From assembly GCA_965220855.1 (NCBI GenBank), contig CBDCQY010000002.1, positions 136,001 through 200,000 of the forward strand: a stretch of 64,000 nucleotides of DNA, given 5' to 3'. The stretch is from Alphaproteobacteria bacterium. Lineage in GTDB: Bacteria > Pseudomonadota > Alphaproteobacteria > Bin95. The position numbers and the translations under genes are program-made. Shown here piece after piece: positions 38,690 through 41,176 of the stretch; position 1 is the stretch's first letter; each line of letters opens with the position of its first letter. The notes under the pieces were generated by a model, which searched no databases, had not been told where the DNA came from, and saw only the letters and a program-made list of their open reading frames with translations.

Positions 38690-39180
38690 ATGGCGCCGCC
38701 CCGCCGGGTCGCGGCGCGGTCCGGCCGAGTTCGGCGCGGGGCCTGTCGGCGCCGACCGCGAAATCGTTGTCGGCCAGCGCATAGGCGGCGCGCTGACCTC
38801 GGATGCCGGGGCGTTGCTTCTGGGCGCGGTGGACCGGTCACCCGGTCCGGTCACGCGCTTTGCGGGCTGCTTTTCGGACGCTCGCGCGTCGGGTCGCACG
38901 GTCCATGCCATGGCGATGTGGATGCGCCTTGTGCTGTGTCGGACCTCGACGGCCACCATGCGCGCCAACCAGCTTCGCCTCTGGTTCGCCTCCATGGCCT
39001 ATGTCCTGCTCTCGGCCTTGAGACGCCTGGCGCTCGCCGGAACCCGCCTCGCCAGAGCCACCTGCGGCTCGATACGCCTCAAGCTCCTCAAAATCGCCGC
39101 CCGGGTCCGACACAGCACAAGGCGCATCCACATCGCCATGGCATCCGCCTGCCCCCATGTCGATGTCTTCGCCCGCGCGC
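38690..39180 (+). pseudogene. IS1380-family (DDE_Tnp_1-like) transposase remnant with an internal deletion; only the N-terminal and extreme C-terminal segments remain
   Basis: Frame of ORF 38526..39200. ...ALTSDAGALLLGAVDRSPGPVTRFAGCFSDARASGRTVH (transposase N-terminus) is joined directly to ...QLRLWFASMAYVLLSALRRLALAG...IRLKLLKIAARVRHSTRRIHIAMASACP (the C-terminal tail). The catalytic core is absent. Confidence 0.55.
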
Positions 39181-39382
39181 ACCGTCGATTATGTGGCTGA
39201 CACCAGCCCAAGGCCCGAACACCGCTCTCCCGCCAACAACAGGAAACCCGCCCCGACATGCCCCGCGCCCCGAGCGCAACGGCTCCCCATGCCCTCACCG
39301 AACGAAAAACCAACCCGGGCCACCAAAACAGCCCAAAAGCCCACAAATCGCCTCTCAACAGGGCACCCGTGAGAAATGCGGG

Positions 39383-40393
39383 CTAATCGTCACTCCGCAA
39401 GTCGTCGAGAGATCGGTTCTCGACAGAGATTAATATCTCGGCGAACTCCTGCATGACGCGATTCAGGTCTTCCGTCGGTTCGACGCGATATTTCCCCCAC
39501 CTCCCATCGCCGGTCGTTTTCAACTTGAAGAAGTGGACCAGGCCATACCGCTGTAGATATTCCACCTGCGTCTTCGTCGAAGATCGGCTGTTCTCGTAAT
39601 CCTTGAGGCCGGCGTCGCTCACCAGTTTATCATGATTGGCCAAGGGATCTCGAAACAGCTGGCGGACAGCATTCAATGTTAAGCTATCCTCCGACAAAGC
39701 CACCGTGATCGCTATTTTGGCGGAGTCGGTATCGCGCAATCTTGTTCGTGCGCGCGATCGCATCGCCTCGGTGGACCACTGCTTCTCTTCTATCGCTTCG
39801 ACGTTTTCAACGTTAATGAGCGATACGATTTTTCTCCAGGATGCGAGCAATGCCGAATGGCATGCCACGACATGCAAATCATGATTCTTCGCGGAAACTA
39901 AATGGGATCGAATCTCCGGAATATATTCCTGCTCGAATACTTGCTTTAATGTCATCGTCCCCTTGATGCCTTTCCCCTCGTTGCCGTACTCGAACAGTCG
40001 ATACGGTTCGATATTCGTCAATAGCCTTTCGAACGGACCTCTCACGCGATTATCTGCCTTAATGCGTTCAATGCGCATGTCTTCATCCTTTGCAGCAGAG
40101 TCAATCGGGTTCACGAATGTACGGCGAAGTCGCTGTATCGAAATCTCCTTATCCATATCAAGCATCAGTAATGACAGCGTTGGCGCAACCATAGAATCCA
40201 TAAGAGAAAGGCGCCCCTTTCTTCGCAAACTCGGTGTCTCAAAGTTCTCGCGCTCGAGCTTTCGGATTAGCGGCAAGGCGCTGAACGTCTCGTTGAGACG
40301 AAGCAGACGCAAATGCCGCTCCAACGCCGCTTTACGTGCTTTCGAAAAGGTCACCATGCGTTCTAACCATTCCCCCACGGGTTGAGTTGCCAA
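39383..40393 (-). CDS. Hypothetical protein (about 325-336 aa), low-GC island gene B; candidate immunity/partner protein
   Basis: The low-GC ORF overlaps the 3' end of gene A by 31 nt if the first ATG is used. Alternative start at M13 (MVTFSKARK), 6 nt after gene A's stop. No recognisable domain. Confidence 0.5.
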   Translation of the reverse strand: MATQPVGEWLERMVTFSKARKAALERHLRLLRLNETFSALPLIRKLERENFETPSLRRKGRLSLMDSMVAPTLSLLMLDMDKEISIQRLRRTFVNPIDSAAKDEDMRIERIKADNRVRGPFERLLTNIEPYRLFEYGNEGKGIKGTMTLKQVFEQEYIPEIRSHLVSAKNHDLHVVACHSALLASWRKIVSLINVENVEAIEEKQWSTEAMRSRARTRLRDTDSAKIAITVALSEDSLTLNAVRQLFRDPLANHDKLVSDAGLKDYENSRSSTKTQVEYLQRYGLVHFFKLKTTGDGRWGKYRVEPTEDLNRVMQEFAEILISVENRSLDDLRSDD

Positions 40394-40953
40394 CCATGCT
40401 CCAAAATCGTCTGCTTGCTCTTCACATCATCTTCAACCGCACCTTCCCTTGGAACATTCTTCAACCTCTCCTTGAGCAATTGCCAATATTCCTCTGAGTC
40501 CAGTCCGACCATAACTCTGAACGATGGGCCAGCGGGATCGAACTGCTCGCCAAATTTTCGATGGACGATCCCACACCCATGAGTATACGGCATCATCATG
40601 TAGTCGCCTTCACGCACATTCGCGGCGCCGCGGGTGACGGCGTTGATCGGGGGGCAACCGTCCTTCGCAACGATACTCTTCGCCGACAGTGCAGTAGTGA
40701 GGAACGGGTCGGTCCAGCGCTGCGTCGCGGGCCTCAGCAGGTCGGCCTGGAGGCGCCAGGCGGCGTTTCCGGCAATCATGGATGGGGCGTGGGCGCGCCA
40801 GTTGTCGGCGTCGGCCGGCGACATCGACATATGCCCGACATCGCGCCAGCACCCGAAATGCATCGATGCGCCCATGAGCGCCGCGCCGGTGGCGAACGCC
40901 GCGCCGGTCGGCAGCAACCCGATCAGTCCGAGAACAACGGTCAACATGCGCAT
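40363..40953 (-). CDS. Hypothetical secreted protein (196 aa), island gene A. The N-terminal half has host-like G+C and the C-terminal half is low-GC
   Basis: Start at M41 of ORF 40363..41073 (MRMLTVVLGLIGLLPTGAAFA signal peptide) with a strong AGGAGG RBS. The GC composition breaks near nt 40640-40700. Confidence 0.5.
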   Translation of the reverse strand: MRMLTVVLGLIGLLPTGAAFATGAALMGASMHFGCWRDVGHMSMSPADADNWRAHAPSMIAGNAAWRLQADLLRPATQRWTDPFLTTALSAKSIVAKDGCPPINAVTRGAANVREGDYMMMPYTHGCGIVHRKFGEQFDPAGPSFRVMVGLDSEEYWQLLKERLKNVPREGAVEDDVKSKQTILEHGWQLNPWGNG

Positions 40954-41017
40954 AGTGCGGTCTCCTCGCCTCCTGGCGATAGCCAGAGAGGGTGCAGGAC
41001 AGAGCCGATCCGCGCAA

Positions 41018-41067
41018 TTTGAAGATTCGTGCGATAGCCGACTTTTTGAAGATTCGTGCGACAGCCG
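41018..41067. repeat. Two tandem copies of a 23-25 bp direct repeat (TTTGAAGATTCGTGCGA[T/C]AGCCG), period 27 bp, in the upstream region of island gene A
   Basis: Copies at about 41018-41040 and 41043-41067, lying 65-115 nt upstream of the gene A start codon at the island/glyA boundary. Confidence 0.6.
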
Positions 41068-41176
41068 GCGCAATGGGCCTCCATAGGGACCTGCCGCCCG
41101 GCCGCCGGCCGCGCGCTGGCGGGAGCGGCGGGATTTGCTAAGGTGGGCGGGCGTTCCTTATCGGAGGTGCTTGCGA

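Follow-up and report, generated by a model that had tools for sequence, protein, structure and literature searches.

A low-G+C gene pair beside an IS1380 relic in an alphaproteobacterial genome: a possible module of an exported protein and a winged-helix regulator

Layout of the purC–glyA interval

The stretch analysed here, referred to as the window, comprises 64,000 nucleotides (nt) of an Alphaproteobacteria bacterium (GenBank assembly GCA_965220855.1, contig CBDCQY010000002.1, positions 136,001 to 200,000 of the forward strand). Between purC and glyA it carries two closely spaced genes, A and B, which together contain an island of low G+C content next to the remains of an IS1380-family insertion sequence (IS). 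An earlier note on this DNA had drawn attention to the island and had proposed that the gene pair is a polymorphic toxin with its immunity gene. The present analysis addresses the composition of the two genes, their relatives and the rearrangement that surrounds them, and considers whether they may instead be the remnant of a module combining an exported protein with a regulator. The interval is laid out as follows.

37787–38545, minus strand: purC, the left flank of the island
38640–39300, plus strand: IS1380-family transposase relic, its left edge being the end of synteny
39300–40620: foreign low-G+C segment, G+C about 0.50, containing the 3' third of gene A and the whole of gene B
39383–40357, minus strand: gene B, 324 amino acids (aa), with its ATG 5 nt after the TAG of gene A
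40363–40953, minus strand: gene A, 196 aa (from the open reading frame list and the sequence)
From about 41135, plus strand: glyA, the right flank of the island

The mean G+C of the whole window is 0.706 (70.6%; standard deviation of 0.05 for 400-nt windows) and the G+C at third codon positions (GC3) of the neighbouring host genes is 0.86–0.92. In 200-nt windows, the G+C drops from about 0.70 to 0.46–0.55 across approximately 39300–40620, which is the deepest low-G+C stretch in its part of the 64 kb; only one other patch in the 64 kb is equally low (60455–61486, with a minimum of 0.45). The nucleotide change point lies at 40621. The low-G+C island beside an IS1380-type remnant described in the earlier note is therefore confirmed, although its low-G+C part measures about 1.3 kb and not about 1.7 kb. 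A reading-frame composition scan of the purC–glyA interval gave no host-type high-GC3 reading frames.

Gene A has a mosaic composition

Gene A begins where the earlier note had placed it, downstream of two Shine–Dalgarno sites on the minus strand (AGGAGG at 40974–40969 and GAGGAG at 40967–40962, the latter 8 nt before the ATG). The N-terminus of the product, MRMLTVVLGLIGLLPTGAAFA|TG, resembles a Sec signal peptide as judged by eye, and the protein is presumably exported. A 99% identical orthologue (P0001) is present in a second strain. Apart from noise, the protein has no match at E ≤ 1 in Pfam, NCBIfam, PADLOC or PHROGs, and its AlphaFold2 (AF2) model is unusable (predicted local distance difference test, pLDDT, of 33). 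Its parts are listed below.

40705–40953, minus strand: codons 1–83, signal peptide and host-like high-G+C N-terminal segment, GC3 about 0.88
40609–40704, minus strand: codons 84–115, high-G+C linker, GC3 0.70–0.85
40366–40608, minus strand: codons 116–196, low-G+C tail of the foreign module
40468–40515, minus strand: conserved tail motif VMVGLDSEEYWQLLKE, residues 147–162 of A

The GC3 of gene A is 0.84–0.86 to the left and 0.55–0.58 to the right of the best cut, which falls at codons 111–122 (2-lnL, or log-likelihood, support interval of codons 82–124; permutation p of 0.0005). Because the drop is measured at third codon positions, the mid-gene switch noticed earlier is not an effect of amino-acid composition, and the signal-peptide bias that the earlier note had named as a possible artefact is excluded as its source.

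The two ends of the protein have different relatives. Residues 11–83 are 67% identical (BLASTP) to the start of a different secreted protein, orf1 of locus L001; at the nucleotide level the identity is 80% over 220 nt and ends at 40706, where the similarity is abruptly lost (blastn). Beyond the shared segment, L001 orf1 has a C-terminus that is unrelated to gene A. The N-terminal region of A consists of a Sec-type signal peptide and a 60-aa segment common to one other protein, and it matches no trafficking-domain hidden Markov model. The earlier note had suggested searching for this N-terminus fused to different C-termini: L001 orf1 is one such case, but neither 5.8 billion proteins nor the Joint Genome Institute (JGI) metagenomes contained another relative. 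For codons 84–115 no homologue was found in L001 or the other loci. At the other end, residues 144–196 are 42% identical to the C-terminus of a second L001 protein, orf2, and only the last 53–72 residues of A belong to the low-G+C module.

By composition and homology, gene A is a chimera in which a host-like N-terminal segment is joined in frame to the tail of the module, and the junction of the host-like codons 1 to approximately 115 with that tail accounts for the mid-gene G+C switch. L001 orf2 has a separate mid-gene GC3 drop, from 0.7–0.9 to 0.2–0.5 at about codon 150. In two high-G+C hosts, a low-G+C unit of tail and gene B is thus fused in frame to host-like 5' parts encoding signal peptides.

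Gene B is predicted to contain two winged-helix domains

Gene B has a GC3 of 0.61. As the earlier note had described, it starts within or just after the end of gene A: an alternative TTG start at 40393 would give a protein of 336 aa and a 31-nt overlap with gene A. The domains of the 324-aa form are as follows.

About 39884–40357, minus strand: N-terminal domain, a predicted winged-helix domain of approximately 145 aa
About 39386–39883, minus strand: C-terminal domain, a predicted winged-helix domain of approximately 145 aa

The view that neither protein belongs to a recognized family holds for B as it does for A: there is no match in Pfam, NCBIfam, PADLOC or PHROGs, and a profile of the B domain matched no sequence in the PDB. 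A word-indexed search of the 5.8 billion proteins returned an orthologue with 92% identity (P0002), a truncated call of B itself (P0003) and a relative with 43–45% identity (P0004). When 1.84 billion representatives were searched exhaustively with HMMER, only six B-family proteins were found, including a two-domain protein of 369 aa (P0005) and three single-domain proteins of 143–169 aa (P0006–P0008). Relatives were also sought among the 5.8 billion proteins with A and with a domain profile, in GTDB genomes, in JGI metagenomes (with B and the N-terminus of A) and, by tblastn, in plasmids and phages; all searches together yielded only about seven members of the family and one relative of the N-terminus of A. 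When the units are aligned, each of B, P0004 and P0005 proves to be a tandem duplication of a single domain of approximately 145 aa, and an hhalign comparison of the N-terminal halves with a profile of the C-terminal halves and single-domain proteins gave a probability of 97.7% (E of 1.4e-12 over 143 columns).

The AF2 model of B, made from a seven-sequence alignment, is confident (pLDDT of 83, predicted template-modelling score, pTM, of 0.83). Each half contains helices, a long helix followed by a β-hairpin and a C-terminal helix. The fold comparison proposed in the earlier note gave a partial answer: a Foldseek search against the PDB and viral models returned nothing significant, but all of the high-probability partial matches, each covering one domain, are winged helix-turn-helix (wHTH) regulators, namely MexR, TcaR, YusO, NadR, MarR, MftR, TrmB and PadR. 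At the sequence level, there was no match to the MarR, MarR_2 or HTH_27 models and only sub-threshold matches to DUF7351, HTH_64 and TrmB; in P0005, sub-threshold TrmB/HVO_A0114 matches fall on the putative recognition helix. Judging from the model, B is probably a new winged-helix protein that binds DNA. It is cytoplasmic and could form an intramolecular pseudo-dimer.

Between two near-identical strains, B and P0002 differ by 24 substitutions and two 3-aa indels, an overall difference of 8%. All of these changes lie in residues 1–230, with none in residues 231–324. Gene A differs at only two of its 196 residues between the same strains (Fisher p of 6e-4 and 2.5e-4), and one of the changed residues is in the tail. 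As the tail is nearly invariant where B has diverged, the two do not co-vary.

A conserved tail motif precedes B-family genes

The element of A that is conserved across the family is a short motif near its C-terminus, with the consensus [VL][GV]xD[ST]E[ED][YV]W[RQ]. The gene upstream of B ends with this motif in four of the five loci in which upstream sequence is at least partly visible. In a six-frame translation of all the sequence compared here, about 2 million residues, its core, D[ST]E[ED]xW[RQ], was found only four times at separate sites, each of them directly upstream of a B-family gene. The conserved residues are encoded by differing synonymous codons in the four loci, which indicates that the peptide itself is conserved and selected. 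The motif lies 12–38 codons before the stop and about 30 to 155 nt before the start of B. The part of A shared across the whole family spans approximately 16 residues, rising to 53–72 residues between the two closest members; outside the tail, the bodies of the upstream proteins cannot be aligned among loci. The window holds no second tail motif or copy of B, gene B being followed by the IS relic and then by purC.

The three complete upstream proteins (A in the window, L001 orf2 and the L003 protein) all have N-termini that resemble signal peptides by eye. In L001, P0004 is preceded at a 5-nt gap by orf2 (308 aa, with its own signal peptide). The motif-ending gene of L003 encodes 118 aa with a signal-peptide-like start and is separated from B by 69 nt, and that of L004 encodes a Cys- and Pro-rich protein of at least 240 aa and overlaps B at an ATGA. 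The pairing of tail motif and B-family gene thus recurs in three other, unrelated genomic contexts. The G+C of B is below that of its surroundings in every locus except L004, a short contig on which no host flank is visible, and in the mid-G+C hosts of L003 and L004 the composition of A and B is uniform. IS elements adjoin the module in three loci (the window, L003 and L006). The unit that is shared and co-transferred is the tail together with B.

The A tail was also considered as a possible leftover of the C-terminal helix in a B-type domain (IPFIEECW versus IFLVEDTEDVW). This was rejected, as an hmmsearch of all the A-type proteins with the domain profile aligned nothing there.

The IS1380 relic lies at a rearrangement junction

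The plus-strand open reading frame (ORF) 38526–39200 matches the DDE_Tnp_1_4 transposase model (PF13701, E of 1.1e-31) over model positions 343–430 of 435 only. A complete IS1380 would have a full DDE_Tnp_1_4 transposase with terminal inverted repeats; here the recognizable part is limited to the C-terminal 90 or so codons, with the Pfam match at about 38928–39191, and the remaining ORFs within 38636–39372 match no family. The relic contains an inverted repeat of 49 nt, and tblastn additionally reveals part of the transposase segment a second time, in inverted orientation.

38905–38953 and 39096–39144: 49-nt inverted repeat within the relic, 94% complementary

The repeat indicates an internal inverted duplication or a rearrangement of a dead IS, and on this evidence the element next to gene B is a dead relic. 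It resembles IS1380 in that the ORF flanking gene B matches its transposase model and differs from it in its truncation and internal inverted duplication; there is no sign that the relic moved the module.

A PurC query against the GTDB species representatives returned 80 loci. The closest relatives are three uncultured alphaproteobacterial metagenome-assembled genomes (MAGs) with 90–91% identical PurC. Synteny by blastn with L008, L009 and L016 covers purL-purQ-purS-purC and ends exactly at 38639, which is 94 nt upstream of the purC start; the genes found upstream of purC in the relatives are unrelated and absent from the entire window. No glyA orthologue lies within 6 kb of purC in any of these 80 genomes; one of them has only a distant glyA-like match (32%). 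The earlier note had taken the stretch to be inserted between purC and glyA and had suggested comparing this interval among relatives. There is no conserved interval in the 80 genomes, and the end of synteny at 38639 together with the lack of glyA near purC points to a rearrangement breakpoint and not to a simple insertion into a conserved interval. It follows that the adjacency of purC and glyA is derived and that the dead IS is located at the rearrangement junction.

Interpretation as an IS-associated module

The mid-gene G+C break, the recurrent pairing and the occurrence of the A N-terminus with another C-terminus together support a modular picture of this locus. The reading that we favour, to which we assign an even chance, is that a two-gene operon module, associated with an IS and belonging to a very rare and undescribed family, was acquired horizontally and has left the island as its remnant; it would combine an exported protein with a DNA-binding regulator. 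Such a module would have two components: the final, 3' portion of an upstream gene, coding for the conserved peptide segment with its acidic and aromatic residues, and a tightly coupled gene B, the product of which would contain one or two copies of a new MarR-like winged-helix domain of approximately 145 aa. In high-G+C hosts, the upstream gene is a mosaic with a 5' part of host-like G+C. A and B would be co-transcribed from a promoter upstream of A, with the translation of B coupled to that of A across the 5-nt gap. B would bind DNA as an intramolecular pseudo-dimer and regulate transcription, probably of its own operon, and the conserved tail of the exported protein may serve as an input that ties the production or activity of B to export or to the extracytoplasmic state. 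DNA binding and regulation by B, the export of A and any functional link between tail and B are inferred.

The closest structural parallel is to the MarR, TrmB and PadR regulators. As modelled, each B domain has the size of a MarR monomer and the same order of helices, wHTH, wing and C-terminal helix; its single-domain relatives could dimerize as MarR does, and tandem B may represent a covalent pseudo-dimer. In contrast to MarR, B lies outside the sequence family, its tandem duplication within one chain is unusual for MarR architecture, and the MarR family is not characterized by a tie to a conserved-tail exported protein encoded upstream.

Several observations weigh against the favoured reading. 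The likeness of B to wHTH proteins is weak, with Foldseek E values above 0.1 and TM scores of 0.4–0.5 per domain, and no significant database match gives A or B any function. Mature exported A cannot physically meet cytoplasmic B, which leaves the linkage of tail and B unexplained. In L006 a B-family gene occurs without an upstream A-type gene and has instead a secreted Cys/Pro-rich protein, unrelated to the A family, downstream of it. No operator shared by the A genes was found upstream of them across the loci, only locus-specific short repeats. In addition, the signal peptides were judged by eye, and the comparative statistics, drawn from no more than about seven family members, are thin.

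The pair could alternatively be a polymorphic toxin system, for which a general framework has been described (PMC3482391). The low-G+C C-terminus of A would then be a toxin that acts after Sec export and B its immunity protein, the two having replaced an earlier C-terminus by recombination. The resemblance lies in the composition break, in the joint transfer, as one compositionally foreign cassette, of the sequence for the end of an exported protein and the gene that follows it, in the different C-terminus that follows the 83 N-terminal residues of A in L001 orf1, in the tight operon coupling and in the localized fast divergence of B between near-identical strains. Binding of B to A before export, as in toxin/immunity pairs, was considered as a basis for the tail–B tie. 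We nevertheless regard the proposal as very unlikely. Neither protein contains a recognizable toxin, immunity, pre-toxin, defence or trafficking domain (Pfam at E ≤ 1, PADLOC, NCBIfam and PHROGs); conservation in A is confined to a motif of 16 residues (approximately 72 aa at the most), which could not accommodate a known enzymatic toxin domain, and A has only 196 aa in all; and B, by prediction a large tandem wHTH protein, is unlike the known immunity families, occurs without an A-type partner in L006 and does not co-vary with the tail. Sec-dependent polymorphic toxins exist, for example MafB of MafB/MafI. In the window, however, no array of orphan cassettes follows B, and family members share a conserved tail and vary in their N-termini, with small unrelated secreted bodies in place of a common delivery domain. 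What survives of the earlier proposal is its modular cassette, in that tail and B travel together and the N-terminus is found with another C-terminus; the toxin and immunity labels have no specific support. Another explanation, which we consider rather unlikely, is that an IS-mediated rearrangement or deletion fused two fragments into gene A by accident and that A, and perhaps B, is functionless debris. The truncated and internally rearranged IS relic, the synteny break at 38639, the lack of homologues for codons 84–115, the substitutions and indels gathered by B between near-identical strains and the disordered AF2 model of A would all fit. Against accident, both ORFs are intact in two strains, A retains a strong ribosome-binding site and an in-frame junction, the tail motif is under purifying selection at the peptide level across four loci, the indels in B are in frame with its last 94 residues invariant, B folds confidently in the AF2 model, and L001 orf2 is an independent in-frame mosaic of the same type.

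Two further explanations give the tail itself a role. Secretion-monitoring arrest peptides such as SecM, MifM, VemP and ApdA/ApdP (PMC10987492, PMC7897499) share with A a signal peptide, a non-conserved spacer and a C-proximal conserved motif, and are encoded directly upstream of and co-oriented with a partner gene. An A family of this type would stall the ribosome at the tail unless the signal peptide is pulled by the translocon, and the stall would tune the translation of B, here a transcription factor. The motif lies close to the stop codon directly upstream of B, is found only where an exported gene precedes B and is attached to unconstrained bodies of 118–308 aa; the signal or transmembrane N-terminus, conserved C-terminus and spacer of more than 30 aa by which such substrates are recognized (PMC10987492) are all present, with spacers of about 70–230 aa. 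A further criterion used to recognize monitoring substrates is a position upstream of a sec or yidC gene, and one arrest peptide upstream of a regulator gene, YwcI-sacT, is also noted (PMC10987492); B is not a Sec or YidC component. Moreover, the motif is not RAPP/RAGP-like or similar to any other known arrest sequence. The mRNA from the motif to the ribosome-binding site of B contains no detectable Shine–Dalgarno-sequestering hairpin or otherwise stable or unusual structure (folding energies were no better than those of shuffled sequences, with z of −0.11, −0.31, −0.83 and +0.16), and the spacing from motif to B varies. Two partners exceed the known monitors considerably in length (at least 240 and 308 aa), and cysteines in the partners suggest folded exported domains. 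This makes export monitoring an improbable account. Peptide signalling of the RRNPP/ComRS kind, in which the C-terminal part of a secreted pro-protein A would be released, re-imported by an oligopeptide permease (Opp) and sensed by B, we consider highly improbable. An exported precursor with an informative, conserved C-terminal segment does stand beside a cytoplasmic, probable wHTH protein, and Opp-type transporter genes adjoin the L006 and L003 members. No Opp genes lie beside the module in the window or L001, though, the precursors of 118–308 aa are far above known pro-peptide lengths, the motif stops short of the very C-terminus in both the window and L001, and B lacks tetratricopeptide repeats (TPR) or another known peptide-binding domain. 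A motif common to distant members, and not pair-specific, would carry no signal specificity. RRNPP systems have been described in Firmicutes and in phages of these bacteria, whereas the hosts here are of Gram-negative type, that of the window being an alphaproteobacterium. A bolder reading, which we think unlikely, would treat the A-family genes as exported leader ORFs that are not functional proteins themselves: signal peptide and tail would report export or the extracellular state to the tandem winged-helix factor, either as a force-sensitive nascent chain or by release and re-import, and the tail–B unit would, on horizontal transfer, plug in frame onto any resident gene for a secreted protein.

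These readings differ in what the locus would mean. If B is a regulator, as in the favoured module, it would represent a new and extremely rare tandem MarR-like family that spreads between distant bacteria with a short peptide-coding segment. The wiring of a foreign module into its host by in-frame fusion to different exported proteins, shown by two independent G+C mosaics, is unusual and raises the question of why a cytoplasmic DNA-binding protein should be genetically tied to the tail of an exported one. Should the tail act in arrest or in signalling, monitoring substrates would become a concept that reaches past the Sec and YidC genes, and leader ORFs of the kind described would amount to a portable secretion- or signal-sensing regulatory cassette of an undescribed kind. 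If the pair is inert debris, it would be a clean example of an IS-linked rearrangement that makes chimeric ORFs mimicking polymorphic-toxin architecture.

Other features of the window and of the related loci

Two further features border the gene pair.

41018–41067: two 23-nt tandem direct repeats with a 27-nt period, located between the divergent genes A and glyA, 65–115 nt upstream of A
39314–39337, minus strand: terminator-like hairpin with a T-run, 46 nt past the gene B stop (consensus scan)

The repeats occur once in the window, with none expected by chance, and are missing from all other loci except L002, which is the same strain; they are a candidate operator or promoter element. Terminator-like sites in the window are no commoner than expected from shuffled sequence, which makes the hairpin weak evidence for a terminator. 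An Rfam scan of the window returned no RNA families.

Among the related loci, the module copy of L003 sits among clustered transposase genes, of which there are at least five (DDE_Tnp_1, IS1595, rve/Mu-type and IstB, at 3239–6269 and 13542–17110), and the island is flanked by SBP_bac_5 and BPD_transp_1 genes (42–3031 and 10628–12460). In L001, a hydantoinase B gene at the 3' end of the module (2630–4300, minus strand) is split over two frames, either as a frameshifted pseudogene or through an assembly error. In L006 (1735–9220), the B gene lies 45 nt downstream of a complete same-strand Opp-type operon (SBP_bac_5, two BPD_transp_1 and ABC_tran with oligo_HPY) and is followed by the gene of the secreted protein, which has a CPCSCPCPCLCPCQC run, and then by an IS3 element. 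Genes for FGE-sulfatase, ankyrin-repeat and TPR proteins also lie on the L006 contig. The closest MAGs have names (CAR1_bin_3 and COS4_bin_55) similar to those of sponge-microbiome bins, which, together with these L006 genes, we take to be a hint and not a result.

The second low-G+C patch of the window contains ORF 60646–61218 (plus strand), which encodes a secreted, cysteine-rich protein of 190 aa. This protein has no relative among the compared loci and is unrelated to the A family (BLAST). Its gene is flanked by a high-G+C ORF (59609–60502) and by an Opp/Dpp-type ABC ATPase gene (61303–62400, minus strand).

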